A stretch of 64,000 nt of DNA from an uncultured Opitutales bacterium. Its GTDB lineage: Bacteria; Verrucomicrobiota; Verrucomicrobiia; Opitutales; T3Sed10-336. Location: NCBI GenBank assembly GCA_964645585.1, contig CAZYAN010000009.1:18480-82479 (forward strand), written 5' to 3'. Positions 4,415 through 30,732 of the stretch are shown here, piece after piece (position 1 is the stretch's first letter; every line of letters begins with the position of its first letter). Position numbers and translations under genes: made by a program. Under the pieces are notes generated by a model that was not told where the DNA came from, searched no databases, and worked only from the letters and a program-made list of their open reading frames with translations.

Positions 4415-4424
4415 AGGAACCCCC
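4398..4424 (-). terminator. candidate intrinsic terminator at the convergent junction, downstream of the giant-gene operon
   Basis: The hairpin GGGGGT(4407-4412)/ACCCCC(4419-4424) overlaps the stop of the + gene. On the minus strand it is followed by CGTTTTGT. The stem is short, so this is weak. Confidence 0.35.
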
Positions 4425-4448
4425 ATCCCCTGATGCACGTGACCTGGT

Positions 4449-6368
4449 CTACCGCTGCACGACTCGTAACCGGATAAACCGGCGGTCGGAGGCGTTGAAA
4501 CTCGTCCGGTCGCGGACCGTTACCGTTTCGCTGTCGCCCGCATCGATCACACTGACAACTTCCGTGTAGTCCGACCCCGAGAACCAGTCGGCCAGATTCC
4601 GCGAAACTTCGACGATGTAATCCATGTCGTCCCGGTCCTTCGGTCGGTTAAACGTCAACGATACGTAGCGTTCATTATCGATCTCGACCTCTCCGTAAGC
4701 TGGAAGCAAATGCCGCTGATAGACATCCGGCTCCAAACCGAGCGCATAACGGAGGAGATTCGGAATTCCGTCGACCGGCGATGGCGCACCGGGCGCGTAT
4801 GCCGACAGATCGCCGCTCAAGCCGCCGCCTTTCGCAATCTGCTCGCCCTGCCAGCCGGCAAACGTCGGCGAACCTGTTACCCGCAGACGCATGAATCGCT
4901 TCGATGCTTCCTCCATCGGGGTCAAATCCCGCACGGTCACGTCTTCCCAAGCTCCCGCGTCCTCCACTCGTACAATCTCTGTGTACTCCGGTCCCGACTG
5001 CCAGTCCGCCAATCCACTGCCGACTTCCGCCAGGTAATTCAAATCCGTCGCACCCTTAGCTCGGCGATACCGCACGGTCAGGTAGCGTTTGCCATCTTCG
5101 AAAACTTCCGACCCGGCCGCGGGCAAACCCCGCGGAGATGGATTCGCCCCATTCAAATAGAACGCGTACCGCAACAGGTTCGGCACCCCCCGTCCACCAG
5201 GGTCCGCGCCCGGACCTCCGATTTCCGGATTCTCCCGGTCCGCTTCATCCGGATAGTTGGCCAATTGCCAAAAACTGTAGGCCGTTGAAACGGTAAAGAT
5301 TCCGCTCGCCCCTTCCCGCCCCTCGGCATCCTGAGCCAAAAGCTCATGCTCGCCCGGATCGGTCACAGCAACCAAATACGACGCCAGGACTCCTCCTTCA
5401 AACGGCGTCGTCGTCCCGCCTCCCGAAGCCAAATTTCCGGTGGCGCTCAAATCGACGGATTCATCAAAACTCGGCACCGTCCGCCCTAAACTGTCAACCG
5501 CGCGAATCGTCACCGTAAAGGGAACACCGACGGTCTGCGGCCCGACCGCATCAAACGCGAATCCAGCGACAGTCACCGGTTCATCATCCAGACCGAATAC
5601 GAACACCTCCGCATTCGCCACTTCGAAGACACCGCTGAATGTCAGGGTTGTCTCCGCCGCCGGCCGCGAGTCGGGACTGCCGAACAGCGTCAGCGTATAG
5701 GTGTTCTCCCCGCTCAAGCCGCCCGTCGTGCTCCCGTCAGCACTCACCAGATCGTCCAGGTTGAAAAACGCCTGATTCGGACCAGCCCCGTCGCCAATCA
5801 CCGCGGCAAGTCCGTACGGCGACGATGGCGTCTTCAGCAACAGCGCTCGCCCCGCCAGATCGTCCCTCGAAAACTCGACGAGCAATTGTCGCGATCCCGC
5901 CACAAACCCGGTCTTGTCCGTGGTCCGTACCGAAGGCAATGGTGCCGCATCCGGCAATATCCGTCCCGGTCCCGGCACCGCAAGCGGGGTCTCGTTCACC
6001 TGAAAATAATAGGTTGTCCCCGGCTCGCACCCGCTCACCCGCACGAGCATCGACCCGCTCTCTGCCATCCCTTGTTCCAGCGATCGCCGCACACCGCGAG
6101 CAATGTATCCTTCCGGCAAATACAAATCACCCGTATGCAGCGGAAATGCCTCAATCCGCAAATTGCCGGTGATCTCTATACTTCCACCCTCGTCCGAAAA
6201 AACGGAGATCCCCGGCGTCGCCGCACTCGGTGCCTGCCACAAAACGGAAAATCCATCCGGACTGACCTGCACTACGTGCGGTTCCTCGCCATAAACAGCA
6301 ACCGCGGCAATCGTCGCCAGCCAAACCGGAAGCAGCCATCTTCCAAAAGTTCTTCTCATAACTTTCAC
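4449..6368 (-). CDS. secreted protein with an FN3-like N-terminal domain, an Ig-like middle and a duplicated ~130-aa C-terminal domain
   Basis: 639 aa with signal peptide MKVMRRTFGRWLLPVWLATIAAVAVYG. It has two paralogous C-terminal modules (GVPNLLRYAFYL...RFMRLRV and GIPNLLRYALGL...RFIRLRV). The GTG start overlaps the upstream stop (GTGA at 6365-6368). It is the last gene of the operon. Confidence 0.7.
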   Translation of the reverse strand: MKVMRRTFGRWLLPVWLATIAAVAVYGEEPHVVQVSPDGFSVLWQAPSAATPGISVFSDEGGSIEITGNLRIEAFPLHTGDLYLPEGYIARGVRRSLEQGMAESGSMLVRVSGCEPGTTYYFQVNETPLAVPGPGRILPDAAPLPSVRTTDKTGFVAGSRQLLVEFSRDDLAGRALLLKTPSSPYGLAAVIGDGAGPNQAFFNLDDLVSADGSTTGGLSGENTYTLTLFGSPDSRPAAETTLTFSGVFEVANAEVFVFGLDDEPVTVAGFAFDAVGPQTVGVPFTVTIRAVDSLGRTVPSFDESVDLSATGNLASGGGTTTPFEGGVLASYLVAVTDPGEHELLAQDAEGREGASGIFTVSTAYSFWQLANYPDEADRENPEIGGPGADPGGRGVPNLLRYAFYLNGANPSPRGLPAAGSEVFEDGKRYLTVRYRRAKGATDLNYLAEVGSGLADWQSGPEYTEIVRVEDAGAWEDVTVRDLTPMEEASKRFMRLRVTGSPTFAGWQGEQIAKGGGLSGDLSAYAPGAPSPVDGIPNLLRYALGLEPDVYQRHLLPAYGEVEIDNERYVSLTFNRPKDRDDMDYIVEVSRNLADWFSGSDYTEVVSVIDAGDSETVTVRDRTSFNASDRRFIRLRVVQR

Positions 6369-7303
6369 CTCAGGGATTCACTTCCGCCCAGAACCTCGGC
6401 CTCCAACAAATCCAGCTCCGCCTGGAGGTCCGCGTCGTCACCGAGTCGCCGGTAAAACGAACCGCCCCAGCGGCCGGTTCCCGAACGGCCCCCGTGACGC
6501 AGAATCTCCTCGCCTCCAGCCAGAATCACGACACGTCGATTGCCCGACGCCCGGATCAGTTCCGCCATCCGCTCCGCTCGGCCGTCACCGCTGTCAATCA
6601 AAACCAGCAATCCGTCCTCGGGCCCAATTCCTTCGAGCGCACCGAGGCTTGTCGGTTTCGCGGCGGTCTCTCCGGCCGGGCCGTCCGCGAAAGCCACCCG
6701 GCGAACTTCCGGCTTCGGAACATCCAGAACGCGTGCCTCCGGGAACACCGACCGGAGATCAGTCAATTCCGGCAAACTTGACGCGACCCGGACCGGTCCC
6801 GGTTCGCTCGCCGGCTCACTCACCGGGGGTGCCTCGCGCAAATCCACCAGCACCGCCTCTCGCTGCGCCTTCGCCAACTGCTGGTACGTAATATACGGAA
6901 GGTGCTCGACCGTCATTCCCGCCGGGCGAGTCGTCGGCAGCGCGGCCGATTCCCATGCCGCAATTCCGCCCGCCAACACGCGTGCGCGGATTCCTTCCTT
7001 TTGGTCCAGCAGCAGCATCGCCCCTTCACCCGAAACTCGCCCGAGCCCGTCTCCGTACACCACCACTTCGCCGAGCGGAGGCAGGCCGCGGCGCGCGATC
7101 GCCGGCAATGCCACGTGAATCGCCCCCGGCAAATGCCCTTCCGCGTACTCACGCTCGGTCCGCGCATCGATCAGCGTCAGCTTGTTCCCTTCTTCGAGCT
7201 CCCGGGCCAAATCGGCCGCCGTCACCATTCCCGCACCGTAACCATTCGCTCCGGCCGCAGCGATGCCGGCCGCCATCCAGATCCAAATTCTTTTCACAAC
7301 CAT
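6365..7303 (-). CDS. secreted tandem rhodanese-like domain protein, cysteine-free (predicted non-catalytic)
   Basis: 312 aa with an N-terminal hydrophobic signal. The rhodanese fold motif is LTLIDARTEREYAEGHLPGAIHV...VVVYGDGLGRVS...LAGGIAAWE, with a second degenerate copy (LLVLIDSGDGRAE...VVILAGG). The whole translation contains no Cys. Confidence 0.75.
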   Translation of the reverse strand: MVVKRIWIWMAAGIAAAGANGYGAGMVTAADLARELEEGNKLTLIDARTEREYAEGHLPGAIHVALPAIARRGLPPLGEVVVYGDGLGRVSGEGAMLLLDQKEGIRARVLAGGIAAWESAALPTTRPAGMTVEHLPYITYQQLAKAQREAVLVDLREAPPVSEPASEPGPVRVASSLPELTDLRSVFPEARVLDVPKPEVRRVAFADGPAGETAAKPTSLGALEGIGPEDGLLVLIDSGDGRAERMAELIRASGNRRVVILAGGEEILRHGGRSGTGRWGGSFYRRLGDDADLQAELDLLEAEVLGGSESLR

Positions 7304-7316
7304 GTCGCGAAACCTC

Positions 7317-10300
7317 TTAAAGTTCGGGCCGCCATCCGGTCACCGGTTCGACCATGTCTACAAAAATTACCGCCACTTCAGGAATCGGAAAATCCGGCCC
7401 GGTCAGCAAACCGTTCCGCACTTCAATCGTCTTCCAAAATCCCGACGCCGCATCCAGCATCCGCAGGGCACGCACGTTCTCTGCACCGAGCTGACGCGCC
7501 ATCCGGTGCGCCGTATAGCCTGCCGGGAAACCGGCATAGCCGAGACTCGTCACCCCGTCGCTAAGATCGATTTCTCCCGAAACCGTTCCCAGATCGAGGA
7601 TCCGCCCTTCATCGAAAGAGACCCACAAGAATCCGCCTTCCTGGAGCGTGAAATTCTCACCGCTCGCCGCACCGCCTTCCCAGCTCGCCCGCTCGATCTC
7701 GACCGCGGGCAGCAAGTTCGACACGCGCTCGATCGCCACAACGCCCGCCCGATCCTGCCACGCTTCAAGCAAATTAAACGCGTCTCCATAGCGATCCGCC
7801 AAGGCCGCGGTCACAACCACCGCGTTGTTGTTGTCGAACACCTGCTGCAACGCGGGAATTCCCGCAGTGCGAATCTCCTCGCCGCCATCGGTCGTTTCCT
7901 GCCAGACCAGCTGACCGGCCGCCAGCACCGGACGCGTCTTCGCCGAGATCGTATTCGTCAGCGGAGCCACCCGAAGATTATCCAGGCTCAGCAGCCGGAT
8001 GTTGCTCAAATTCGCCCCGACCGAATCTTCCTCCATCACGACCCAATGGCCAAGCAGGAACGGACGCGTCTCGTTCTCCGGCGAATTCGTCAGGCGGGTT
8101 TCCGTTCCCCGCAGCAAATCCATCCCGTACAGCTCCAGTTGCGTGTGACGGTTGTCCTGCCACACAATCCAGTTTCCAAAAATTTTCGGATGATACTGGC
8201 CGTCCGTGTTGTCGGTGATCCGGCGCGTTTCCCCGGTTTCCAAATCCGCGAAGTAGATTTCGCCCGGCCCAACATCCCGATGGTCCTGCCAAACGATCCG
8301 TCCGGCATGAATATCCAGATCCTGCTGATTCTCGGTGCTCGGATTCACCAGGAAGTTTTCGCCGGTCAAAATGTTAATCGCCCGGATCTGCCACGGCGCC
8401 TGACTGTCGTTCACCGGCCGGCTCTGGAAGGCGATCCATGGCCAATCGATTACCGGCTTGATATCATTTCGTTCCGGACTGCTCGTTACGCGCGATGCCG
8501 GCGCGAATGTATTCAAATCCCGGATCCAAATATCCCAGGCGCCATTCTCGCGCCGTCCCTGCCAGACGACATAACGTCCGTCGGTATACGGATTCTCCTG
8601 GGCGGCCGACCCGGTTGTGATCGGCTGCACCGGTGCCGACGGCGCAGTCAAACGGCGTCCGACAATGTTCCACGATCCTTCTGCCCGGTCCTGCCAGACG
8701 ACCCAGTCGCCCCGCGCGTGCGGTCCGGCAGCGCCCCGGCTCGCGTCCGCAACGGTCGCTTCCCCCGCCGCCAGATTCTGCACCTGAACCAGCTTAGACG
8801 CGTGCGCCACGTTCCCGAGACTGTCCACCAATCGGACGCGCACCACATACCAGCCGGCCGGCGCCAAATTTCCGGCGTCATCCCGGCCGTCCCACAAGAA
8901 GCGGACCGTTTGACCCTGCACGCCAGGGAACGTCGCCGATCGTACCAAGGTCAAACGCGAAAAATCCGAACCGTATTCAGGATCGACAACCCAAGTAACC
9001 GTCGTTGCGTTCTCCGCCTCCTGCCATTCATCCCCGGTTTTCCCGATCAGCGAAACCGTCTGTGTGCCGGGCGTGAGCGCCGACAGCGAGATCGGCTCCG
9101 TCAATGGCGCTTCCGCCCGGAAATATCCGCCGTTGATCGTCCAGCGATATAGATCCGCGCCCGCCGACTCCACCGTCAACGTCACCGACCGCGCCGCGGT
9201 TGGACTCGGCGGAACTCCGGCCACGGAAAACGCCGGCGCCGAAGCGTCCACCTTCCACGTAACCTCCAGCGCCTCGCTTTCGGGCAAATACCCGCCGTGT
9301 ATCGAACGGCCCAATACGGCCACCGTCACATCCCCTGACAATCCGTCCAGGACGAGCTTCTCAGCAACCGGCCGTTCCTCGGACCACGTGCCCCCATTCA
9401 GCCGGTAACGGTAAAAATCGACGTGACTGCCGCTCACCGTCAAACTGGCCGATCCCGATGGCGCCGGCGACGGGGGCACTCCGGCGATCGTCGGCCAAGC
9501 GATCACGCCCGCGAAGATATCGATTTGCGCATCGACCGCGACCGCGCCTGGGGCCGCGGTCACCGAAATCTCCGCTCCGTCCGGACGTACCGACAGCGTT
9601 TCTCCGCTGTGCAGCAGCGAAACTTCCTCCGAATCGAAGTCCGCGATTAAACCGGCCTCACCCGGCAAAACCACAATCGCCGTTTTCTCCGCTTCCCGGT
9701 TCCCCGCGATATCCTCCGCGTAATACGTGATCTGGTGTTCGCCTGGTTCACGGATCGTAAACGGCAAAGCCGGACGGAAGGCTTCGTCACCGATTTTATA
9801 ATACATGCTCACCGGACTTTCATCTTCCGCGATAAAGAAGATTTCCGTCTCCCGGTTCACATAATATTTTCCGTCGGCCTCAAAGACTTCGCCGGCAAAA
9901 TGGATTTCCGTAACCGGTGGTTCGTTGTCGAGCCCGGATTCTTTGTACTCGACCGTGTATTCGTAGGTCGCGCCGAGATCGACGAGGTCGAACAGATTCA
10001 AGTAGGTCAGCTTTCGGTTGCTGCCCGGTTCATAACGGATATTCGTCCAGACGTTCCGCCCGTTGATCACTTTTCCATCGGAGCGAACAACTCGCTCAAT
10101 CGCGAAACGCGCCTGCCCCGGATCGTCGATGCGCACAAATCCCCATCCTTCAAAATCAGCAGTCACGTCCATCGTAAACTTCCGGTCCGGTCCGATTCCC
10201 GACGTGACAGTGACCTGCGTTAAATGATTCACCGGCGTCACATTCCCTTCGCTTTCATACATCGCGTCGGGAATCAGGGCCTCATTCCGGTCGGTCACCG

Positions 10301-11297
10301 CGAGGAAATCGAGAATCCCGTCGCGTCCAGGCTGGTCATTGATCACTTCACGCACAATAAAGTGCGCGTCGATCGAACGGATGACCGAAGTCTCCATCCC
10401 GCCCAATTCCGATGAGTGCGTATACGATGCCTTGAAATCGATAAATTCGCCGGAAAGCGACGTAATCATATCCCAGGCGCCTTTCTTCGTTTCGCCTGGA
10501 TAAATATCGCCTAGATCGACCAGCAAACTCGCCCGGTCGAGCGGACTGTCCATCACCCGGGCACCCAGCAAACGCGCAACCAGCAACAGCCCTTGGTTGT
10601 TCTCGACAATCCGCGGCTGCTGCGAATCAATCTTCAAGCTCCGCGCGATCCCGTAACCGGTGTTCTTTACCAAGACTCCCAGCGTAAACGGAATCGGGCT
10701 TTCCACTTCCGGCGTGAACGGATCATCGGCCTGAACGTCACGCGGCATAAAATAAGTGATTTCCAGCTCCGGCTCCGGATAGACCGAAATTGTTTCCGGA
10801 ATCGCGAACATGTTGTCTTCCGGAATCTCCACACCCGCGACTTTTCCGCTCATGTTGACTCCGACCAAATATTCCTTTCCGCGCGGATCCGTCCCGCCCG
10901 CGCCGATCTTCGGAATAATAAACCAGCGTATCTGCGCCGTCTTCGTCGGTCCAATCACGCCATCACCATCAATCCGGTTGATGTCGCGCAATCCGAGCTG
11001 TCGCACAAAAAACATGTCGGAAACGTCCGTGCCTTCCTCATCGTCCGGATCGTAGAAAACGAGGCTGGCGTAGAAATCCGTGATCGGATCCTCGCTTTCA
11101 TTGTTGGTGATTTCGAGCGTCGCTTCGAATCCCATCCGCTCGATGGTCAGCTCCTGCAGGATCTCGATCTTAGCAGTCGCGCAAATTCCCTGAAATTGCT
11201 GCTGCGCCGCCGCCGGCACCGCAAGTGCCGCCAGCATCACAGCCGCCGCGGCACCCCGGCAGATCCGCTCGATTGGTTTCATCAAAAATCGCTTCAC
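7317..11297 (-). CDS. large secreted protein: unknown N-terminal region, Ig-like repeats, FlgD-Ig-like domain, 7-bladed 'VWQD' beta-propeller, unknown C-terminal domain
   Basis: 1,326 aa with signal peptide ...AAAVMLAALAVPAAAQQ. Seven blades appear at about 7860-8720 (WVVWQDRAEGSWNIV, YVVWQGRRENGAWDIW, RIVWQDHRDVGPGEIY, NWIVWQDNRHTQLELY, QLVWQETTDGGEEI and others). There is an FlgD-Ig-like FLWDGRDDAGNLAPAGWYVVRV. The GTG start overlaps the giant ORF stop (GTGA, 11294-11297); an alternative ATG is at 11282. Confidence 0.8.
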   Translation of the reverse strand: MKRFLMKPIERICRGAAAAVMLAALAVPAAAQQQFQGICATAKIEILQELTIERMGFEATLEITNNESEDPITDFYASLVFYDPDDEEGTDVSDMFFVRQLGLRDINRIDGDGVIGPTKTAQIRWFIIPKIGAGGTDPRGKEYLVGVNMSGKVAGVEIPEDNMFAIPETISVYPEPELEITYFMPRDVQADDPFTPEVESPIPFTLGVLVKNTGYGIARSLKIDSQQPRIVENNQGLLLVARLLGARVMDSPLDRASLLVDLGDIYPGETKKGAWDMITSLSGEFIDFKASYTHSSELGGMETSVIRSIDAHFIVREVINDQPGRDGILDFLAVTDRNEALIPDAMYESEGNVTPVNHLTQVTVTSGIGPDRKFTMDVTADFEGWGFVRIDDPGQARFAIERVVRSDGKVINGRNVWTNIRYEPGSNRKLTYLNLFDLVDLGATYEYTVEYKESGLDNEPPVTEIHFAGEVFEADGKYYVNRETEIFFIAEDESPVSMYYKIGDEAFRPALPFTIREPGEHQITYYAEDIAGNREAEKTAIVVLPGEAGLIADFDSEEVSLLHSGETLSVRPDGAEISVTAAPGAVAVDAQIDIFAGVIAWPTIAGVPPSPAPSGSASLTVSGSHVDFYRYRLNGGTWSEERPVAEKLVLDGLSGDVTVAVLGRSIHGGYLPESEALEVTWKVDASAPAFSVAGVPPSPTAARSVTLTVESAGADLYRWTINGGYFRAEAPLTEPISLSALTPGTQTVSLIGKTGDEWQEAENATTVTWVVDPEYGSDFSRLTLVRSATFPGVQGQTVRFLWDGRDDAGNLAPAGWYVVRVRLVDSLGNVAHASKLVQVQNLAAGEATVADASRGAAGPHARGDWVVWQDRAEGSWNIVGRRLTAPSAPVQPITTGSAAQENPYTDGRYVVWQGRRENGAWDIWIRDLNTFAPASRVTSSPERNDIKPVIDWPWIAFQSRPVNDSQAPWQIRAINILTGENFLVNPSTENQQDLDIHAGRIVWQDHRDVGPGEIYFADLETGETRRITDNTDGQYHPKIFGNWIVWQDNRHTQLELYGMDLLRGTETRLTNSPENETRPFLLGHWVVMEEDSVGANLSNIRLLSLDNLRVAPLTNTISAKTRPVLAAGQLVWQETTDGGEEIRTAGIPALQQVFDNNNAVVVTAALADRYGDAFNLLEAWQDRAGVVAIERVSNLLPAVEIERASWEGGAASGENFTLQEGGFLWVSFDEGRILDLGTVSGEIDLSDGVTSLGYAGFPAGYTAHRMARQLGAENVRALRMLDAASGFWKTIEVRNGLLTGPDFPIPEVAVIFVDMVEPVTGWRPEL

Positions 11298-23200: not shown

Positions 23201-26200
23201 GCTCCCGCCAACCGTGTAACTCCGAGGCTCTTCAAACGTTCCGTCGCCGTTCGATCGCAAGAGGTTGAACTGGCTGTTTGATCCGGAAATCGAGACCAGA
23301 TCGTCAAACCCGTCGCCGTCAATGTCTCCCGCCGCCACGCCGTCCGGATTCGCCAAAACCGCGTATTCGGTCCCCGCCCCGAATGTTCCATCACCAACGC
23401 CGGCATACACCGAAAGGGTGTTCAACGCATTGTTCGCCACCGCCAAATCCAAAACGCCGTCTCCATCGAAATCCCCCAGTGCCACGCCGGTCGGCCGCGA
23501 ATTCGGCTGATCGATCCCGGCCCCGGCGGCAAACGTCCCATCCCCGTTCCCCAGCAAAACGCTTACGGAATGGCCGTTGTAATTCGCTGTTACCAAATCC
23601 AAGACACCATCGCCGTTCAGATCACCCACCGCGAGGGCGCGCGGACTGGATCCAACCGGATAGGTTGCCGGCGCCGCGAGCGTGCCGTCGCCTTGGTTCA
23701 AGAGAATGCTAATCGTATTCGGTCCGTCGTTGACTACAGCCACATCCGGAAACCCGTCTTCATCGAAATCCCCGGCTTCCAAGGCCCACGGATTCGAACC
23801 GACCGGATAATCCACTCGCGCCGCGAAACTGCCGTCTCCGTTTCCGAGCAAAATGCTCACCGTATTCGCTCCCTGATGCGCGATCACCAAATCCGCCGCG
23901 CCGTCCCCATCGAAATCAGCCGTCCGCACAGAGTAGGGGCTGGAACCGACCGTGGTGGAGGAGATCTGCCGAAACGACCCATCAAAACCCGCGGCGGGTC
24001 CGCCCAGCGAAACTCCTGTTTCAAAACTGTTGTTTCCGCTCCGCTCGAGAATGAAGTTTCCAAGCGGCGCCATTGTGAATTGTCTCACGAACGGCTCAGC
24101 CAGCGGATTGCCCGCCAGGTCTTCGACCGTATCCAAGATCCTGAACCGGTAATCACCAGGCTGGAGCGGCCCGTCCGATATAAAATAAGAGGCACTCAAT
24201 CCGGCGCCGTAACTCGGGGTCGTCGTCACGGTGTACACCTCGTCATCCGCCGTCTCAAAAATTCCGTCCGCACCCGCGTTCCGCAGTTCATAACTCGCCG
24301 GGTCATTCACGAAACTCGCTTTCAAATCCTCCGAGAAATTCGCGCTGAACCGGTCGATCAAAGCGGTTGAGGTCGTCCCTTCCGCCGGAAGCGAAACGGA
24401 AACGATCTCGGGTGCCTCCAGGTCCCGCGGCACATCGATCTCGAGCTCCAGCAGATAGACCGCTGCCACCCCGCTCGATGACGAGCCCGCCCGCACCCGC
24501 GCATAATAGCGGCCTTCCTCAGCCACCGTAAAGGTCAGCTCCGTTTCCCCTTCCGTCGCCGACGCAACCGCAGTCCCGTCCTGGCGCAAAAGGTCGATGA
24601 CCGGACTCAGCGTGCTCGTCGCGGGAAGCTGGAGCGCGATCCGAATTTCCGTATCCACCGGCATGTCCGCCAGCGGCACATCGGTCCCCGGCTGCGTGTT
24701 CCGGAAATGGAAAACGTCTCCCGCGTCCCCGTGGCGGATATACCCTAAAACTTTCGCCCTCTGCAGCGCGTCAATTCGCGTGAACACCGGCTGATTCGCC
24801 TGCCCGGGATTGTTGTTGGATTCGCCTTCCGCCTGCCAATCGCCCGGGGCCAGCGTCACCCGGAAACGGTATTCTCCCGAGAAATTATAATAGTGCCGCA
24901 CCTGGATCCCATAAGTTCCCGTAACAGGCAAAATGGTGCTCAGTTGCTCCGTCCCGTTGTTACTGGTCATCGCGATCAATTCGCTGCCGTCCGGCCGCAA
25001 GACCGCGTAGCGCAACCCGGTGCTGCTGTTGTGGCCAACCGATTCCGATCCAAGCAACAGGCGTTCGCCAGCCGACGCGCTGAACGACCAGTAATCGTAA
25101 TGCTCGGTTCCCGTATCGGCGATGTTTCCGCGGCCCGCGCCGGTTCTGACACCGGTTCCCGCCGGGTCCGCCGCCAGAATCCGCGCCCCCCTTCCGAACA
25201 GCAGCGTGATCGTACTGTCTGTCGCGCTCACCGCCGCGATATCCGGCCGGCCGTCGTCATTAAAATCGCCGATCGCCGCCGAACGAACCGAGCGGTTCGC
25301 GCCGTAGCGAACGGGGGATTCAAATACCATCTCCCCCCGGTTGTAGCGGACAACCACCTCGTTTCGGCCCGAAATCACCAGATCCGGCCGCCCGTCGCCA
25401 TCCAAATCGTGAAAACGGACTTCAAAACTCGCCGAACTTCCTCCGATACTGCTGTAAGCAACCGCATCCGCGAAATTCCCGCCGCCGGTCGCGCGGAAGA
25501 CGCTGACTTCCGTTCCCGACGTGTGAACCGCCACGATATCGTCCAGCCCATCGCCGTCGAGGTCCGCGACCCCCACCCCGTTCGGACGTCCCGCGGGCGT
25601 GTACGCCGATGACTCACCGAAGGTTCCATCACCATTTCCGAGCCGGATGTATATCGCGTTGTTGTCTTCCGCGGCCACCGCGATATCAAGCTTCCCGTCT
25701 CCGTCAAAATCGCCCAGTGCGACACCCCGCAGATCCGTCCCGACACCGGTCACCGCCGCTCCCGCGATAAGGGCGCCGGTGCCGTCGCCGAGAAACAGGC
25801 TGACCGATGCGCCGCTCCGGTTCGAAACCATGACATCGAGATGGCCGTCGCCATCGAGATCGCCCACCGCCAGCGCTCCCGGATTCGAGCCGACCGGATA
25901 CGACACCGCATCCGCGAAGGTCCCGTCGCCATGACCCAGCAAAATACTGAGCGTATTCGAACCCTCGTTGACCACCGCAAGATCGAGTTCTCCGTCCCCA
26001 TTGAAATCCGCCAGTTCCAAAGCGATCGGATTGCTTCCGACCGGGTAATCGACGGGCTCCGCAAAGGTTCCATCTCCATTGCCCGCGAAAATCCGCACCG
26101 CGTCTGGACCAAAGAGCGCAACGGCCAAATCGTCAAAACCGTCCCCGTCAAAATCGGCGGCCCGAATAGAACGGGGATCGGAACCCGTCGAGATCGTCCC

Positions 26201-29200
26201 CTCCGCAAAGAACGATCCATCGAAAAGACCCGCCGGAAAGGAGCTCAAACTGGTCGCCGTTTCAAAACTGCTGTTTGGATACTGCTCCATCACGTAATCC
26301 CCAAGAGTCTCCAGCGTGAAGAATTGCACGTAATCCTCCTCGAGCGTGTTCCCCGACCGGTCAGCCACTGCCGAGAAAACCGTGAAGCGGTAATCCCCCG
26401 CCTGCAGCGGACCGTCCGTGATCCGCATCGAAAAGTTCAGGCCGGAAGCATAGGCAGGAGCAGCCGCCAGCGTGTACACCTCATCGTCCGCCGTATCGAA
26501 AAGCCCATCCGCGCCCGCCGCGCGAAGATCGTAGTTCGACATATCGTTTACCGGCACCGCCAAAAGATCCTCGCTGAAATCCACCCGAAACCGATCGATC
26601 TCCGCGGTCGAAACGCCCGTTGGCAGTGTCGTCGAAACGACCTCCGGCGGCACGACATCGGCCGGAATTTCCAGCTCCGCCTCGAGAAAATATTGCGAGG
26701 CCAAACCGGCCGTTCCGGGACTCGCCGAGACTCTGACGTAATGACGGCCGCCTTGTCCCGCCGGTACCGTGTACGTCAGCGAAGGTGCGCCCGTCTCCTC
26801 CGAAGCGACCAGATTCCCGCTTGCATTTCGGAGTTCGAGATTCACTTCCAAAGGACTCGACGACGGGCGGCTCTGCTGAATTCGGATTACCGTTCCTTCC
26901 GGCAACGGGTAGAGCGGAACGTCATCCGTAAGCGGGATTGGCAAGAACGACCAGAAATCCGCCGCGTCCCCGTGATGAATATGACCAAACGCGCTCGCCC
27001 GGTGAATTCCATCCGCCAATACAACCGCCATCGCATCCGCTTGGCCGGTGTTGTCGTTCGACTCGCTTTCCGCGATCCATGGCGCGGGAGCGAGCGTCAC
27101 CCGGAAACGATATTCCCCGGTATAGCCGTAATAGTGGCGCACCCGCACGAAATACGTCCCGGTCGCCGGCAAAACCCCCGAGGCTTGTCCGGATCCGTTG
27201 TTACTCGTCAGCGACAGAACCGAGCCGCCATCCGAGCGCAGCAGGTCATACCGAAGCCCGGTTCCGCCTCCATTCCCCACCGATTCCGACGCGAGGATGA
27301 TCCGGTCGCCTTCCTCGCCTGAAAAACTCCAGTAATCATAATCATCCGCGCTATTGCTGACGACATGACCCCGACCGCCGATAGAGCGGATGCCCGAACC
27401 GGCCGGGTCCTCCACCAGCGGATCGAGCGGCGTCGCCGTTGCCATGGAGTTGTTCCCGATCGTCTCGAATCGCAATTGCCCGAGGGTCTCGATCGTGAAA
27501 TTCCGGACAAAGGCCGGATTCAACGGATTCCCCGCCCGGTCCGTCACCGCCGTATTGATCGTCAGCCGCAACTCGCCAGGCTGAAGCGGCCCGTCCGCTA
27601 TTGTCAATTGGACGGTCGGCCCATCCACATAGGTCCCGACCGACAGCTCATGGACATGGTCATCGCCGGTACCAAAGACGTTGTCGGGTCCCGCGTGACG
27701 CAGCTCGTAATTCGCCGCGTTCGTCACCGACCCGCCATGCATATCCTCCGAATAGGTGACGGAAAACTGATAGAAGATGTCGCTGGATGCGGCTCCTTCA
27801 TCCGGCAGAGTCGTCCCGACAACTTCCGGCGAAACACCATCGGTCATTTTCACCGACACCAAGTAACGCGCGTCCATTCCCCAGACCGGATCGATCGGCG
27901 CGGCCGACTCGACCCGCAACGGCCGGGTTTCTTCTGTCCCGCCGCCGAGAACACCGTCACGCCCGTTCGGCGAGAGATCGACCACGGCCGTCCCGCTCGC
28001 TTCATTAAACTGCCAATATCCCGCAAGTCCGCTTTCGCCGCCCGACAAAAGCTGATCGAAGTCGGCCGCGATTTCCGCGTCCGAGCGCGCCACCCGCCAA
28101 ATCCTCAACTCCTCAAGATCGCCGTTGACGCTCTGGTTCGGATCGAACCTCCCGCCCACGCTGTCCTGATCCTGACCCAGCAAAAACGCGTCCGCGGCCA
28201 CCTGTAGATCATTGAGCGTCGTGGATCGCGCTCCTTGAGGCACGCCGTCAATGGCGAGCCGAACCTCCCCGGCCGTCTGGTCTCGCACAATCGAAAAGTG
28301 CCGCCACCTGCCATCGGCAATGCTCGGAATAGTCCAGCTCACCATGCTCGAGCTGCTCTCGCCGGTGTGAAACTCAAACCGGGTGCTGTTCGCGAAGAAA
28401 AGAAGGATTTCGTTGTCGTTCCCCGCGTTCGCCCCGCTCACGATCGACTGCGCTCCGGTCTTCGTCGTCCGGAACCAAAACTCCACGGTCAAATCCGTCG
28501 CGCCGTTGACCGTCTCCGTCGGAAGAAAAACGATATCGTCATTCCCATCAAACCGAAGCGCGCCGCCGCCAACCCGCCGCGGCGAAACGCGGACGAAATA
28601 CGAATCCGTCTCCGGAATAGCATAATGCAGCAGTTCTCCGTCGACGCTTGCCAGCGCCTCCTCGGAACCGGCCCGAAAAACCGCGATATTCGCCTCTCCG
28701 GCCGCTAAACTCCCCATATCACGGGAGAGTGCGACCTGGATCTCATTTCCCGCATTCGCTCCGCCGATCCGGTACCAGTCCGACATGTCGTTGCGGGGCA
28801 GCAACCCGCCGGCGCGCAGCGTATACTCGCCAGCACCCGGATAGCTGATCAGTGAGGATGCCGTCGCCGCCGAATCATTCGGTTCAAACTCCAGATCCAG
28901 CGACCGGCCTAAATCAAAACGGATCTGAAACGGGGAAACGGCATGATCGGTAAAGGCCCGCACCCGGTACGTTCCAGGGGACGAAAAAACATGCCGTTGC
29001 AAAAGCGCCACACCGTCGGTCCCGCCATTGACACTTCCGACTTCCTGACCCGACGCGTTCAGCAACCGGAGTTTCGGACGCGAAGCACCGTTCTCCGCCT
29101 CCACGCGAACCGTCAGCAAGTCGCCGGTTTCCGCGTCCAGCGCCCATTCACTCACCTGACCGGTCGCCGCGAATTCACCGTCGGCAAGAAAACTGAAGTA

Positions 29201-29377
29201 ACCGCTGCCGGCAGGACCTTCCGTAAATAATACCGGCTGCGGTTGCGCCCGCACCTGTGCCGCGATCGCGATTAATGCGATCATCGCAACGGATAGGACG
29301 GCTGCCGAACGGCGAATGAACTGACTGCATCCTGAAGGGATCACGAGAGAAAGAGGATGGGCCATAAGAAGGGCCAA
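11294..29377 (-). CDS. giant (6,027 aa) multidomain secreted/surface protein ending in a Hint domain
   Basis: Single uninterrupted 18,084-nt ORF. The start is TTG at 29377, or more likely ATG at 29365. The signal peptide is RRSAAVLSVAMIALIAIAAQVRA. Approximate modules recognised by eye follow. PPC-like pairs carry the (D/E)YDYW(S/T)FS...RFRVTLAP motif. LamG/ConA-like domains lie at ~28060-28565 and ~21430-22040. SbsA-type Ig modules carry PPEVVSTTLP...NYDLRAAGADGLFDTADDEVY. Two 7-bladed FG-GAP/VCBS propellers lie at ~25190-26170 and ~22960-23925 (DFDGDGFDDLAV, DFNGDGELDLAV and others). An I-set Ig lies at ~22090-22345 (PLSYQWYRNGVAINGATSATYSL...DAGTFHVVVEN). CARDB-like modules are at ~19400-20100. 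InlB-B-like repeats are at ~18690-19330 (GGSVSGGGVYPEGATVTVTATP...YRFVNWAENG). An FN3 pair is at ~17750-18320 and a right-handed beta-helix at ~17150-17660. Many Ig/FN3-like sandwiches follow, then carboxypeptidase-regulatory-like folds and the Hint domain. Confidence 0.9.
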   Translation of the reverse strand: MALLMAHPLSLVIPSGCSQFIRRSAAVLSVAMIALIAIAAQVRAQPQPVLFTEGPAGSGYFSFLADGEFAATGQVSEWALDAETGDLLTVRVEAENGASRPKLRLLNASGQEVGSVNGGTDGVALLQRHVFSSPGTYRVRAFTDHAVSPFQIRFDLGRSLDLEFEPNDSAATASSLISYPGAGEYTLRAGGLLPRNDMSDWYRIGGANAGNEIQVALSRDMGSLAAGEANIAVFRAGSEEALASVDGELLHYAIPETDSYFVRVSPRRVGGGALRFDGNDDIVFLPTETVNGATDLTVEFWFRTTKTGAQSIVSGANAGNDNEILLFFANSTRFEFHTGESSSSMVSWTIPSIADGRWRHFSIVRDQTAGEVRLAIDGVPQGARSTTLNDLQVAADAFLLGQDQDSVGGRFDPNQSVNGDLEELRIWRVARSDAEIAADFDQLLSGGESGLAGYWQFNEASGTAVVDLSPNGRDGVLGGGTEETRPLRVESAAPIDPVWGMDARYLVSVKMTDGVSPEVVGTTLPDEGAASSDIFYQFSVTYSEDMHGGSVTNAANYELRHAGPDNVFGTGDDHVHELSVGTYVDGPTVQLTIADGPLQPGELRLTINTAVTDRAGNPLNPAFVRNFTIETLGQLRFETIGNNSMATATPLDPLVEDPAGSGIRSIGGRGHVVSNSADDYDYWSFSGEEGDRIILASESVGNGGGTGLRYDLLRSDGGSVLSLTSNNGSGQASGVLPATGTYFVRVRHYYGYTGEYRFRVTLAPAPWIAESESNDNTGQADAMAVVLADGIHRASAFGHIHHGDAADFWSFLPIPLTDDVPLYPLPEGTVIRIQQSRPSSSPLEVNLELRNASGNLVASEETGAPSLTYTVPAGQGGRHYVRVSASPGTAGLASQYFLEAELEIPADVVPPEVVSTTLPTGVSTAEIDRFRVDFSEDLLAVPVNDMSNYDLRAAGADGLFDTADDEVYTLAAAPAYASGLNFSMRITDGPLQAGDYRFTVFSAVADRSGNTLEEDYVQFFTLETLGDYVMEQYPNSSFETATSLSSFPAGLFDGSFFAEGTISTGSDPRSIRAADFDGDGFDDLAVALFGPDAVRIFAGNGDGTFAEPVDYPVGSNPIALELADFNGDGELDLAVVNEGSNTLSILLGHGDGTFADAVSYPVGSNPGALAVGDLDGDGHLDVMVSNRSGASVSLFLGDGTGALIAGAAVTGVGTDLRGVALGDFDGDGKLDIAVAAEDNNAIYIRLGNGDGTFGESSAYTPAGRPNGVGVADLDGDGLDDIVAVHTSGTEVSVFRATGGGNFADAVAYSSIGGSSASFEVRFHDLDGDGRPDLVISGRNEVVVRYNRGEMVFESPVRYGANRSVRSAAIGDFNDDGRPDIAAVSATDSTITLLFGRGARILAADPAGTGVRTGAGRGNIADTGTEHYDYWSFSASAGERLLLGSESVGHNSSTGLRYAVLRPDGSELIAMTSNNGTEQLSTILPVTGTYGIQVRHYYNFSGEYRFRVTLAPGDWQAEGESNNNPGQANQPVFTRIDALQRAKVLGYIRHGDAGDVFHFRNTQPGTDVPLADMPVDTEIRIALQLPATSTLSPVIDLLRQDGTAVASATEGETELTFTVAEEGRYYARVRAGSSSSGVAAVYLLELEIDVPRDLEAPEIVSVSLPAEGTTSTALIDRFSANFSEDLKASFVNDPASYELRNAGADGIFETADDEVYTVTTTPSYGAGLSASYFISDGPLQPGDYRFRILDTVEDLAGNPLAEPFVRQFTMAPLGNFILERSGNNSFETGVSLGGPAAGFDGSFRQISSTTVGSSPYSVRTADFDGDGAADLVIAHQGANTVSILLGNGDGSFAARVDYPVGSNPWALEAGDFDEDGFPDVAVVNDGPNTISILLNQGDGTLAAPATYPVGSSPRALAVGDLNGDGVLDLVTANYNGHSVSVLLGNGDGTFAAGAGIDQPNSRPTGVALGDFDGDGVLDLAVANNALNTLSVYAGVGDGTFGAGTEYAVLANPDGVAAGDIDGDGFDDLVSISGSNSQFNLLRSNGDGTFEEPRSYTVGGSSSNREIVLADLRGDGFPDALIARGNNLSIRENRGGWLFDSPAVYGAGSTVRSVTTGDFDGDGLPDLAVVASGGNTLTIYLGREGHFVAEDPVGSGFRSVAGRGAVSSGDVADYDYWTFSANAQDRILLASENLTYSSGTGLRFALIGPDGSELGSITSSYGTEQLSRVLPVSGTYAIQVRHWYNYTGEYRFRILLAPSTWTVESESNDNIGQANTIPLTLNQGAQEGRMLGYLRAGDSGDVFSVGNVTPGTELRFRLSQTPESTFEGTVEVLDKDGNVRFSAPAGRPVIARQPISRAALVGGDVEFSVEAGGAEPLSYQWYRNGVAINGATSATYSLTDVQPEDAGTFHVVVENHVGSRTSASVTLNVLTSSDDAYFQMVQTLGPRGYWRFGESEGTAVADSATADGSQDGVLSGGATFLEEGAIAGDADTSIAFNGSDAYVRVADGANLANFTIAAWVKPTATSGRTIFSRTSGTNFHGNWSHVVHIDGAGKFAHYLYDGTGKTVTGTTTAQAETWYFVAVTAAQNGSMRLYVNGEQEGADVSIGIPWTGGNTYGIGHSTPVGGFFAGQIDEVALFPRALSAQEIADLYAAAGWTGGTTGGTITALSVDEADMDFAYVVESEGAHYIRLRPNSGTAGLMADYRLYVDVIDEVAPFITSNSLPEEGASTLALIDRFTLGFSEDMLAETVNDSANYELRGAGPDGLFDTEDDVLWEVVPLSSYSTGLTASLRVAGGNLQPDEYRFTAKTGLKDRAGNPLAAAHTRHFAIAQIPGFASEREPNDSRETATDLAMTSSQPGLISGAGRGFLLNTADVEYWAFEAEEGDILVLVSENPGNPGSSGMNFRIEREDGSILWTFQPASNGRGLSTPMVIPATGKYYLRVWPWYSYYNEHRFRLSLYRGIEVELEPNESIATATPLTLSPVEGGRAGAVGGFAWVSGDLDYFSLGTVQAGETIFLSVRLPQSSPMAPVVSLYNADNQYMSEAGSGRPFDGVAEIEITQTGEYFALVRSSGSTGGLMSEYILDALIVPSGGVSFPNLQVVNLSASGVENIKSGETFTIEYEVGNVGSQATQVGVWYDEAVLSANTIFGDEDDFALDLHQRSGVLAPGETYTVTRQVRIPDGIAGSFYVIVRTDSTNVVNEFVLEGDNETFTESPFTVELNDYPDLMVENLTLTGPDGDGVYHVSWETWNRGAAMVTGGFADRVQVRHLATNTVVFDERSEVTEDLAVDAFVPGAASFATALPGNYRVEVRTDADDAHFEYGPDGHAVAEQNLAVATFSITAFFTISLDAVPAEGGSVSGGGVYPEGATVTVTATPDTSVLPYRFVNWAENGAFRSGNASYTFTAIRDRELTAVFALPNYFIAVSANPAGGGTISGGGAHQHGSAVELTANPQPGYLFSHWSEGGTTISTEPVLAFAAVEARSLTAHFTEANPVHEVTTATEPAGIAAVSGAGTFSNGETTTLSAPATVVQDDTEYVFEKFTLNGTHFSGLRTVEKLFTTLDPAEMHFVAHYQARSLRPAVVAASGSKSGAVPAGLAYQISVRFDRTMDPAAVPVATLQSDSETPAPVFPGNGVWSRGAVNNDTFTTPPVTFGAGHDGTFLLHLAGAKDLDGREMEAGTVFEFTVDATPPEHPALTIAATTTSSATVSWSDYTAPADLSAFRIYRHSAPFTSIHEIPVFSGAGKAARSFTFSNLQPDTDYHVAVAAVDAAGNADSALESLLVRLESDLPPPVTISLTNVDLSGVRLSWPSYPKNGLVGFAGFRVFVSDAPFTSVAGMTPVAELGAAASMFEHLNLDRTREYHFAVVGFNRIGEFDPAVTSVRWSDPLAGAIAGDLEVGGDGETEIVVHESLVVTNGARLTVQPGTTLRFVDGAGLTVENGALIAEGTAIAPIHFTSANEEGGTAAPGDWTGIAIGPNAGDSILHHVWVRYGDGIQISDTNADLNALRLAWNTTGITFDGVSAQLVGDSLALLNQTGIDLSGNSSVTLIDSVVKSNGVNARAETGSTLTAQGNWWGTSLAPEIEAGLEGNVDAANPLVQEPVLAPAAAAAGGISQTGTRNLGVTLASPNAVAYRISEDSTFSGTFFQDVPVQDESDIYTAYPYDVTFELSPSGGLKTVFVQFQSVSGETSPAVSFPIEYVTDGPAIAEFNLSEGQLVTRPTEVTGSATAVLGVASIEFLVNGVPVLTASGGNLSGQWNPQGLSPGIYRVMLRATDNGGRVATREHNVTVQPTPPAAPRITSPADGFLTNADTVDVEGTAEASVSVRLTRNGVPMATAEVGADGRFAFADVELVEGSNEFSVIAFDDLGSGSSLPVTVERDTGPPASVILEEPVFSPSEGVSFTWRYQPDGKRAATFRLLWDEEPFSAAEEASGQAEAGFAMDYTVDGLPTGIYFFAVVGVDNAGNMSPISNLREVDYDTSPPAFTISYSHASPVGPGTLTISLTADEPLAATPMLTLRAQGASSPITVTLSQVSQLVYQGTFPVSPLSASSGVAEVRVSGRDLVGNEFVGTPAGPALVFDLTRPTGVVTIDRAVPVQVLADVTMEVGLALSKPVPAGMTPELSFRAPDGQNLAIALTGEGASWSGTLTLTPAMGSGFGEFFLETVDALGNEGTVIADGAEIEIYTTALPEPPPVPVGLRTTSLAGGEIRLEWDAASGAEEYAVFRREDGSLEAGELLAAGVTATEFVDLPPADGTYLYSITASRFSSESAASNEVPGVSDRTPPGKPLNLAASLGVTGIRVSWEAPAEEEVPAAYRVYRNGTVIRTVSSAGEINDSPPRGEITYAVAAVDAVGNENLSDSATLELHVGAVTSLRVTVEDGFAPLLQWNSPDPTAVGVNIYRNGAKRNTIPVVGTLYQDTLTIGTEPVSYAVRTVNASGQESAARALTVYPIELSARFNPGNDGADQPMRAVYFDRYEVSATNLAGAQGWSLHEIGLRRTSSEEPEVSIRKAINAFVLSGESAVETLVFPGVSHSAGARLFEIEALQQVDDGGSQAIYRRTVSYNAVTSPGLMMSVTTPSAPLAGGLNEFTVTVFNRGYADMDVVLIREGGAEPGDLSIAVLNPQGVEMSRTSFASLVPGLIFAPDGTGFWRLQPGESRTVTVPDVLIPEVLGEGGGAILQAELAKIYHAIGTAEERVSGPLVGMMSSGLTQTPYYGTSMSDKALYADDDTVILTGQALDRETGLPVPEVPLHIGFSTRGIHWFEETTTDANGNYAFEYRPTAGLGGSFQVWAAHPDVVDRLDQTAFQFYRVYSAPARGTIRMSKNDTLDFSIGLINPGDLPLTDFALEFSAFEVIDGEKVATEALTGSLVEAVPSLAAGGQRRTVKLRLQAELESPDHALVEFRLVSAEGASALFTGEVSLLAANPILAVPSPRVGYVQASLNRGEIFSREVTIENRGLRTLEDAVMILPAEYSWMTVNLPMEPDGTVLLPDLEVGETFTFSVVLTPPSSLDQGFYNDTITIRGGNTVSDFHLNIFTRITSSQTGSVQFLVDNVLVLPVPNATVLMRNALLGIEAGPFETDAEGEVVVPDLMEGDWSWRVTAAGHSGTTGIVRVSPDETTTVETRLDRSMVTVNFSVVPVPYTDRYEIKIEQTFQTRVPVPVLVMTPQNVTLSEVEPGFVGTVMFEVRNEGLISVFDAEIFGKRVESAELTPLITYIPEIRAQETILIPTRVEYFGTEEELAAGGGGGRVAMGEGGGSLGDAIDCYKNFKYGDVTLTLLARGESECPDGASYYPGASATINIDKLLDFACKGVSGKILKKIKVVKAVCIANTIIKGLACALAQLPEGQITGRPLPSGGGGGTVWGGGGSWPMTAAACVTGETLVTLADGSVRRIDELAVGDRLFSGSGIGNPVAEIRTRESAKVREIFYEPVFGGAGSSLKVTNDHRIWVDGTGWTAAVNVEAGDWLHGDDGRLWKVTRVAELPERETVYTLHMEDDGVFYAGGILLEHECGAPGTELFEAFVEMGIEP
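11354..11755 (-). other. Hint (Hedgehog/intein, bacterial intein-like) domain, residues ~5875-6008 of the giant protein
   Basis: Block A with the nucleophile is AAA|CVTGETLVTLADGSVRRIDELAVGDRLFS; Cys5875 is codon 11753-11755. The TXXH block is LKVTNDHRIWV. The C-terminal blocks are VYTLHMEDDGVFYAGGILLEHE followed by Cys. Only CGAPGTELFEAFVEMGIEP (19 aa) follows. Confidence 0.75.
11756..12169 (-). other. poly-Gly-bracketed Cys/Lys-rich cassette immediately upstream of the Hint domain
   Basis: The sequence is AAGGGGGRVAMGEGGGS...DCYKNFKYGD...ECPDG...KLLDFACKGVSGKILKKIKVVKAVCIANTIIKGLACALAQL...PSGGGGGTVWGGGGSW. Five Cys and a Lys-rich amphipathic stretch are present. The local DNA (about 11880-11990) is visibly AT-richer than the surrounding ORF. 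Confidence 0.6.
22345..27470 (-). repeat. intragenic tandem super-repeat with a ~2.24-kb period (PPC-PPC-SbsA_Ig-FG-GAP propeller unit)
   Basis: The DYDYW-type codon block recurs at 27329, 25088 and 22853 (spacing 2241 and 2235 nt). A more diverged fourth copy sits at 20750. Units are clearly paralogous at protein level but diverged at DNA level, so this is not an assembly duplication. Confidence 0.8.
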
Positions 29378-29650
29378 TTATCGAAATTACGGGCAGAGGA
29401 ACAACGAAATATCCAGTTGTGCCGGCTATTAGAAAGTTAGCTAATCGCACGCTGCCCCGACGCTGGTTAACCCGCCAGTCAACGGAATCTCTTTTCCTCA
29501 TTCAAGCCATAAAGGCCGCTTTCGGCCCAAAACCTGCTAGCATTAGGAATTCTAATTCGATGGACCAGCGGCGCACGAGGCCGATTCCGCGGGCATCCAA
29601 CCGCGCACCTCACGGCCGGGAGATGGCTGCCCGCCGCTCCCCGGCGAGCT

Positions 29651-30535: not shown

Positions 30536-30732
30536 CCTGCTACTTGAGGCGAGTTCCCAACTGGATTCAACCCGGAACCGCGAAACCGAACAGATTTGTC
30601 ATTTCTCATTTTTCCTTTTCCATCTGTCATTCTTCATGGGAAATACACCCCCAATCCAGCAACCGCTCCACGGATTCTCCCGCTCCCAATCCCCAGATCT
30701 ATAATTTCAAATCTAAAATCTAAAAGAATGCC

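Follow-up and report, generated by a model that had tools for sequence, protein, structure and literature searches.

A conserved four-gene locus around a giant protein with a terminal Hint domain in an uncultured Opitutales bacterium

The four-gene locus and its conservation

We analysed a stretch of 64,000 nucleotides (nt) of an uncultured Opitutales bacterium, referred to as the window (assembly GCA_964645585.1, contig CAZYAN010000009.1). In it four genes follow each other closely on one strand. They encode a giant protein, a large secreted protein (the partner), a rhodanese-like protein without cysteine (the pseudo-rhodanese) and a fourth protein (Table 1). A preliminary description, made from the sequence without database searches, had reported four open reading frames (ORFs) on the same strand, packed with two GTGA overlaps and a single 13-nt gap, and all of this was borne out at the same coordinates. 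The TGA stop codon of the giant gene and the GTG start codon of the partner gene share the GTGA at 11294-11297, and the rhodanese and fourth genes are joined in the same way at 6365-6368. The gap between the partner and rhodanese genes (7304-7316) contains AAGAGG. A second candidate start of the fourth gene, the ATG at 6359, was found 9 nt downstream of the GTG with AGGTGA just before it. Judged from the sequence this ATG is the more likely start, in which case the junction to the rhodanese gene may be a 5-nt gap and not an overlap. The giant gene likewise probably starts at the ATG at 29365 and not at the TTG at 29377. Signal-type N-termini had been described for all four proteins, and on inspection by eye each begins with a Sec-like signal peptide.

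Table 1. Features of the four-gene locus in the window, listed in the direction of the genes, with the basis of each assignment where given.
Feature	Position	Strand	Details
Untranslated leader of the giant gene	29378..29650	(-)	273 nt
Giant gene	11294..29377	(-)	6027 amino acids (aa) counted from the TTG at 29377; ORF uninterrupted
Signal peptide of the giant, Sec-type	29246..29365	(-)	MAHPLS...RRSAAVLSVAMIALIAIAAQVRA/QP; from the translation, judged by eye
Variable head of the giant, aa ~45-2700	21278..29245	(-)	Pfam matches
Conserved core of the giant, aa ~2700-5750	12128..21280	(-)	Ig-like, MG-like and fn3-like sandwich arrays
Linker before the Hint	11756..12127	(-)	Cys-containing, Ala/Gly-rich, poly-Gly end; alignment; variable; AlphaFold2 (AF2) predicted local distance difference test (pLDDT) <50
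Hint domain, BIL/PT-HINT type, aa 5875-6009	11351..11755	(-)	Profile of 31 orthologous C-termini
Cys5875	11753-11755	(-)	Alignment of 31 orthologues
His5944 (TxxH)	11546-11548	(-)	Alignment of 31 orthologues
Cys6009	11351-11353	(-)	Alignment of 31 orthologues
C-terminal tail of the giant, 18 aa	11297..11350	(-)	No toxin domain
Partner gene	7317..11297	(-)	1326 aa
N-module of the partner	9888..11204	(-)	~440 aa; four beta-sandwiches (AF2); invariant unpaired Cys39
Pseudo-rhodanese gene	6365..7303	(-)	312 aa; secreted (predicted); no Cys
Fourth gene	4449..6368	(-)	639 aa (636 aa if the ATG at 6359 is the start)
GC-rich hairpin, then UUUUGUAU (U-run)	4403..4428 (approx.)	(-)	~20 nt past the stop of the fourth gene; RNA fold

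One genome per GTDB species was scanned with an alignment of the partner, which gave 80 loci. Synteny was read by tblastn with the four window proteins, and gene calls on four further contigs agreed with it. The order giant, partner, pseudo-rhodanese and fourth gene on one strand was found in essentially all of the 81 loci fetched via the partner, where the contig reaches. The loci carry labels of Verrucomicrobiota, Kiritimatiellota, Lentisphaerota, Desulfobacterota, Myxococcota, Bradymonadia and Gammaproteobacteria, that is at least six phylum-level lineage labels, a count that is approximate. Among the record labels were Opitutales, Puniceicoccaceae, Limisphaerales, Akkermansiaceae and the cultured Haloferula sargassicola, and further Kiritimatiellales, Pontiella, Lentisphaerales, Desulfobacterales, Myxococcota and Bradymonadia. 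The gammaproteobacterial carriers include the complete genome of Marinicellulosiphila megalodicopiae. Two carriers are thus available in culture, H. sargassicola NBRC 104335 and M. megalodicopiae TOYAMA8.

The junctions were conserved together with the gene order. The 4-nt overlap between the giant stop and the partner start was present in 42 of the 55 evaluable loci, the spacing from partner to rhodanese lay between -30 and +150 nt in 46/48 loci, and the first in-frame start of the fourth gene was located -16 to +45 nt from the rhodanese stop in 60/64 loci. The genes around the cluster varied from genome to genome, which indicates that the four genes are what travels together. It had been proposed that the three smaller proteins belong to the giant as dedicated partners and are not chance neighbours, a claim that stands or falls with whether the genes co-occur and keep their order in relatives. 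The same-strand order kept in 81 loci, under several phylum labels, supports such a partnership. The stoichiometric relation and the roles in assembly, anchoring or as co-receptors that had been put forward with it are conjectural. A homology search with the C-terminal 1,627 aa of the giant returned only fragments of at most 2,700 aa; the regions upstream of other giants were therefore out of reach, and the 5' boundary of the operon is taken from the window.

Variants of the cluster were also seen. In locus L027 (9700-10100) the giant ORF lacks a stop codon and continues via a Lys/Gly/Arg-rich tail into the partner signal peptide and QQQFQG, so that giant and partner form a single frame of 4,639+ aa. 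Natural fusion, loss of the stop codon or an error in sequencing could each account for it. In a Verrucomicrobiae metagenome-assembled genome (MAG) the rhodanese and fourth gene form one frame of 821 aa (L061, 13946-16408). Three MAGs each contained two copies of the cluster on separate contigs (L007/L032, L026/L043 and L050/L056). The gammaproteobacterial loci L069 and L073 have an extra gene of 230-270 aa between partner and rhodanese (L069:13926-14729; L073:13887-14585). L069 is additionally the sole giant-type locus with a transglutaminase-like gene (L069:20116-21036), which follows a fourth gene of 1,489 aa.

Domain content of the four proteins

The head of the giant contains a LamG/pentaxin domain (aa 277-437), PPC, Big_5, two FG-GAP/VCBS propeller regions, an I-set Ig domain and a second LamG; LamG_3 was among the matching models. 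The integrin-alpha-like repeats are multiple and above threshold, with 383 bits in 15 stretches for FG-GAP_3 and 169.6 bits for FG-GAP; matches to TcdB_toxin_midN inside the FG-GAP regions were weak. In the core, Pfam and NCBIfam matched CARDB, Flg_new_2, fn3, Big_7, Glucodextran_B, the RGI_lyase beta domain and CarboxypepD_reg. The FG-GAP propeller, LamG, I-set Ig and terminal Hint named in the preliminary description were confirmed by these family models, the Hint being weak by itself and validated by profile search. A beta-helix, also named there, was not found, and the unannotated parts that were modelled are Ig-like sandwiches. The AF2 model of aa 4830-6027 had a mean pLDDT of 78.8, with uninterrupted beta-sandwich arrays at about 90, a disordered Cys/Gly-rich linker and a well-folded terminal domain, and Foldseek with this C-terminal model returned generic Ig/MG arrays only. 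Neither the Pfam/NCBIfam searches nor the AF2 model nor Foldseek detected a catalytic domain in the giant. There was no Pfam match in the giant for RTX repeats, a C-terminal signal of type I secretion systems (T1SS) or an RHS/YD cage, and no ABC, MFP or TolC genes were found among the flanking genes.

In most loci the core was covered by one tblastn high-scoring segment pair with about 40% identity, from query position ~2700, which is where the 10-kb flank ends, to 6010. Giant orthologues on the four gene-called contigs measured 6850, 6990, 5690 and 3463 aa. The larger ones have additional C-type lectin domains in the head. Since the head can be absent or extended and the core is kept, we describe the giant as a conserved stalk, the C-terminal ~3,400 aa, that bears a variable binding head. 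The 3463-aa orthologue (L162, 1-10004) is without the FG-GAP/LamG head but still has the series from CARDB to CarboxypepD_reg, the context on the Hint side and the overlap of 4 nt with the partner. We considered the linker that precedes the Hint as a membrane anchor and rejected this. Its hydrophobic stretches were present in only about half of the orthologues, and with such inconsistency there is no conserved transmembrane anchor.

Cys5875, His5944 and Cys6009 were invariant in the 31 aligned C-termini. The first conserved block has the consensus C-[FL]-x-x-G-T-P-V-x-M-A-D-G, the second is T-x-x-H (TNDH in the window, aa 5941-5944) with an invariant His and Thr in at least 90%, and the C-terminal consensus reads Y-F-A-N-G-x-L-V-x-[DQH]-x-C-G. 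The 31-sequence profile matched 8w20_A (E 2e-21), the BIL domain 2lwy (2e-18), many inteins and hedgehog (E 1e-5). The nucleophile Cys, the TxxH block and the profile match together place the domain in the Hint superfamily. Taken alone, the Hint sequence of the window scored 24.7 bits, under the Pfam cut-off of 27.7; Pfam PT-HINT was detected in 28/31 members, and the Prokaryotic Genome Annotation Pipeline (PGAP) labels fragments as 'polymorphic toxin-type HINT domain-containing protein'. A Hint was found in 74 of the 75 loci with a visible giant ORF. The C-terminal Asn of splicing inteins and the Cys, Ser or Thr at +1 were not found. The terminal position is D, Q or H, the +1 position is variable and an invariant Cys is located at +2. 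In 73 orthologues the tail past the Hint profile was variable and unstructured and measured at most 58 aa (median 12 aa); in none of them does a toxin domain come after the Hint.

The partner consists of a signal peptide, the N-module (aa 32-470), an OmpL47/PKD-like region, two repeats of ~170 aa, FlgD-Ig, a beta-propeller (aa ~860-1150) and a C-terminal domain of unknown type. The propeller repeats matched TIGR04275 with 105 bits (cut-off 85). More than 500 full-length homologues of ~1,330 aa were found at 50-76% identity, conserved from end to end with a mean column identity of 63%. The mature N-terminus, QQQFQGxC, is nearly invariant, and this holds in the giant-linked subfamily only. A sequence-profile search of the partner against the PDB gave no match. 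In the AF2 model, aa 32-870 of the partner form a string of beta-sandwiches, for which Foldseek ranked fragments of the grappling-hook protein GhpA best, together with other Ig arrays and MG domains. As the TM score was only ~0.1, we regard the resemblance to GhpA as a generic fold match. The ~170-aa unit (window 8979-9491, aa 603-773) occurs twice in the partner according to the model and up to 13 times in unrelated large proteins such as P0151, and has no clear Pfam model.

The pseudo-rhodanese had been described as a Cys-free double rhodanese, and this agrees with our searches. PF00581 matched with 64.7 bits (cut-off 22.2), the second half is a diverged rhodanese (hhalign 95.8% against domain 1), and the window protein has no Cys at all. 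Its loops read VVVYGDGLG in domain 1 and LIDSGDG in domain 2. Among 70 orthologues the catalytic-loop position was mostly D or G (VVVY[DG]DGLG; LID-x-GDG), with Cys in a few. As the catalytic Cys is mostly replaced, we regard the protein as a conserved, secreted and mostly non-catalytic rhodanese.

The fourth protein has a signal peptide, a conserved fn3-like N-terminal part of ~250 aa and a lineage-specific C-terminus. By tblastn it was matched at query positions ~30-260 in most loci, and matches over its full length were confined to Opitutales and Puniceicoccaceae. It had no match among the Pfam and NCBIfam models; a database search returned 9 homologues, and homologues carry Pur_ac_phosph_N or Flg_new_2. 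Its C-terminus (window 4452-5300, aa ~360-639) is built of two ~110-aa repeats, each with G-x-PNLLRYA, which are common only to the Opitutales/Puniceicoccaceae orthologues and match no family.

The wider N-module family and the flanks of the operon

The N-module belongs to a very large family. A HMMER search with partner aa 1-860 returned at least 1,793 clusters at 50% identity with E<=1e-30, and neither Pfam nor NCBIfam has a model for it. What the members have in common is the N-terminal stretch of ~440 aa, which is strongly conserved. It opens proteins of 430-3300 aa whose remainder bears DUF11, CARDB or SdrD repeats, and the whole family has one invariant unpaired Cys a few residues past the signal-peptide cut. 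We considered the N-module of the partner as the cargo of the Hint and rejected this, as no preceding Hint was present inside the other giants P0158 and P0177.

A metagenome scan with distant N-module members only gave 80 loci, in which neighbours were counted on the strand of the N-module gene. A membrane-anchored transglutaminase-like protein with intact Cys-His-Asp was encoded beside the N-module gene in 36 loci, a pseudo-rhodanese (match of a hidden Markov model) in 25 and an RHS-repeat toxin protein in 24. In 10 of the 80 a neighbour was homologous to the giant core, with 25-29% identity over 1,000-1,600 aa, and in two of these the core is fused to an RHS cage. A Hint was seen in three, always within an RHS protein. 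By these homologies the four-gene system is one branch of a larger family tied to RHS/HINT polymorphic-toxin loci, and not isolated. The 64-kb window contained no transglutaminase-like gene, no RHS gene and no homologue of the RHS protein of locus L084. The system is thus seen as a toxin-less, Hint-ended branch of this family.

Among the distant loci (L082-L161) we observed a recurring same-strand triad of N-module, membrane-anchored transglutaminase-like protein, in which the motifs GDCTE, YHNWAE and ADPQ are intact, and pseudo-rhodanese, in an order that is permuted from locus to locus. RHS proteins were encoded directly upstream of N-module genes in L084:3-12787, L094:3-13720, L142:3-13990, L115, L118 and L150-L152. 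Some of them are fused to a giant-core homologue, and in L152 a small glutaredoxin-like gene lies in between.

The leader of the giant gene had been called AT-rich. This holds in relative terms for the proximal 200 nt (29378-29577, 46-54% GC) and not for the distal 70 nt, which are GC-rich; the whole leader has 56.8% GC and the window 60%. An Rfam search of the leader matched no family, so neither a cyclic di-GMP nor another riboswitch was detected, and a sigma-70 consensus scan upstream of the operon gave no promoter match. A promoter in the leader is putative. The hairpin that had been noted downstream of the fourth gene is present as a GC hairpin with a U-run and is a possible terminator. 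It was not called in a consensus scan for terminators, and the region did not fold with better energy than shuffled sequence (z -0.16). The gene beyond the 3' end of the operon is convergent. The ORFs flanking the operon at 30634-31338 (-) and 3704-4414 (+), of 234 and 236 aa, had no Pfam or NCBIfam match. An ORF of 629 aa at 7263-9152 (+), antisense to the partner gene, is most likely no gene, since it translates into the Arg/Pro-rich sequence that one typically reads from the strand opposite a GC-rich gene.

Proposed function and its alternatives

We propose, with a probability of roughly 0.55, that the four genes are a dedicated, co-inherited module whose products assemble into an extracytoplasmic fibre or adhesin complex. 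The complex would descend from polymorphic-toxin scaffolds, and the Hint would autoprocess at the junction of giant and partner. The giant would be exported by the Sec pathway. Its N-terminal half may act as a swappable lectin-like/propeller binding head (LamG, pentaxin, PPC and FG-GAP, with C-type lectin in relatives), and its C-terminal ~3,400 aa may form the conserved Ig-like stalk. An N-S acyl shift at Cys5875 would then let the Hint cut the giant from its last ~150 aa, and the thioester could be resolved by water, leading to release or maturation, or by a nucleophile of the envelope or the partner, leading to attachment. The partner, presumably made in step with the giant via the conserved 4-nt stop/start overlap, would contribute a base of N-module, Ig repeats and beta-propeller. 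The pseudo-rhodanese and the fn3 protein may be accessory subunits or help in assembly, in either case without catalysis. Evolutionarily, the system would be a toxin-less branch, whose family relatives co-encode RHS-caged core-like proteins, N-module proteins, transglutaminase-like enzymes and pseudo-rhodaneses.

Several points weigh against this proposal. Transcription, export across the outer membrane to the surface, a physical complex, Hint activity, the fate of the thioester and a role in adhesion or capture are steps that we infer. No secretion-system or anchoring genes were found among the operon neighbours in the window and in the gene-called relatives. With the terminal Asn of inteins replaced by D, Q or H, the chemistry on the C-terminal side of this Hint is uncertain. 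The structural matches, being generic Ig arrays, say nothing specific on function. The phylum count is approximate, because some MAG labels (Bifidobacterium, Bacteroidales) are likely mis-binned. Finally, with such RHS/HINT relatives the role may be one in antagonism rather than adhesion.

PT-HINT domains have been described as releasing peptidases, and transglutaminase domains have been noted in RHS toxins (Zhang, Aravind and co-workers 2012, PMC3482391). The locus could accordingly be read as a working polymorphic toxin system, in which the giant is contact-dependent, PT-HINT frees a C-terminal toxic peptide and the downstream genes serve delivery or immunity. The giant resembles such toxins in its Sec signal, its long repeat or filament region, here Ig/FG-GAP arrays suited for presentation, and its Hint of the pre-toxin type near the C-terminus, for which PGAP likewise uses the polymorphic-toxin name. 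Homologues of its core are fused or adjacent to RHS cages, N-module genes follow RHS genes in 24/80 distant loci, and the weak TcdB_toxin_midN matches point in the same direction. However, the tail past the Hint is too short for a toxin throughout the 73 orthologues. The next gene is not a small immunity gene and encodes a secreted protein of 1,326 aa with 50% identity across phyla. The window is without RHS repeats, and downstream there was no sign of orphan toxin cassettes or poly-immunity arrays. Where PT-HINT toxins have a toxin and an immunity gene, the giant is followed by three conserved partners that are predicted to be secreted. One of these is a pseudo-rhodanese, and rhodaneses are absent from the account of polymorphic toxins in PMC3482391. 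As neither a toxin nor an immunity gene is present, we consider a working toxin system quite unlikely.

The Hint could also be the handle of a ligase, with its thioester attacked by the N-terminal amine of the partner, by Cys39 or by an envelope amine, so that the C-terminus of the giant becomes covalently tied to the base in the style of Hedgehog and cholesterol. Like the Hint/Hog of Hedgehog, the domain is the last one of a secreted protein, its Cys and His are invariant, and cleavage would free the N-terminal product as a capturable thioester; unlike Hedgehog, it has no sterol-recognition region, and the similarity is distant. The best single-domain sequence match was to BIL domains (PDB 2LWY), with which it shares Cys1 and TxxH. 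It differs from them in standing at the very end of the protein and not within a variable region, in its last residue (D/Q/H, not N) and in the invariant Cys two residues later. Attachment to the partner would fit the overlap of the partner start with the stop of the Hint-coding gene in 42/55 loci, the near-invariance of QQQFQGxC in this subfamily only, the family-wide unpaired Cys and the single reading frame of giant and partner in L027. In addition, Hint-less relatives encode a transglutaminase-like, that is thioester-forming, enzyme with intact Cys-His-Asp beside the N-module gene. This case is circumstantial and drawn from sequences, though. A Hint and a transglutaminase-like gene occur together in L069, the RHS-type Hint relatives in L120, L127 and L150 resemble ordinary pre-toxin Hints, and we know of no close precedent for aminolysis of a Hint thioester by a non-Cys N-terminus. 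Altogether we regard a ligase as doubtful. We are equally hesitant about its fullest form, in which the Hint would weld a 5,874-aa fibre to a 1,295-aa base after export and Hint-less sisters would use the membrane-anchored transglutaminase-like enzyme on the N-module.

That the locus is merely a large repeat adhesin next to unrelated secreted proteins, packed by chance or genome compaction, appears highly improbable. In its favour, giant Ig/FG-GAP proteins are common in PVC (Planctomycetes-Verrucomicrobia-Chlamydiae) bacteria, and no function has been demonstrated for any of the four products. Against such ordinary neighbours, order, strand and spacing are kept in 81 loci of distant lineages while the flanks differ completely, giant and partner are fused in L027 as are rhodanese and fourth gene in L061, and N-module genes of the distant family are likewise paired with the pseudo-rhodanese.

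The fibre or adhesin complex that we favour can be compared with giant adhesins. In the LapA/LapG system the N-terminal module of a giant adhesin is handled by a periplasmic transglutaminase-like Cys protease. By this description there is a likeness in the distant family, where a transglutaminase-like gene lies beside N-module genes, whereas neither a transglutaminase-like gene nor T1SS genes or RTX repeats are present in the window. GhpA is a substrate of the type IX secretion system (T9SS). Long strings of beta-sandwiches are shared with GhpA (Aureispira grappling hooks, PDB 9FLP and related), the top Foldseek match, and with SiiE, which ranked lower, but neither a signal nor genes of a T9SS or T1SS were found in this case.

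The preliminary description did not recognise the combination as a described system, and as far as our searches reach this stands. No Pfam or NCBIfam model covers the N-module or the fourth protein, and our full-text literature searches returned no account of the four-gene set, of a toxin-less terminal Hint, of the N-module family or of the pairing of the N-module with a pseudo-rhodanese or transglutaminase-like protein. Hint, FG-GAP, LamG and rhodanese are individually known; the fixed set is new as far as we searched. The usual label for a giant bacterial gene is 'repeat adhesin', and it tends to end there. A giant with three fixed partners across PVC bacteria, Desulfobacterota, Myxococcota and Gammaproteobacteria marks a real machine of unknown function in abundant environmental bacteria. 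It exposes the N-module as a very large unannotated domain family and a recurring secreted pseudo-rhodanese without known role. A Hint that is retained as the last domain of a protein and has no toxin to free leaves one asking what purpose its thioester serves. The links to RHS loci suggest a way in which scaffolds that present toxins and fibres of the cell surface evolve into each other. If the Hint were to act as a ligase, this would be a Hedgehog-like attachment of protein to protein in bacteria, and the N-module would be a general acceptor domain for covalent surface assembly. The cultured carriers make these questions open to experiment.

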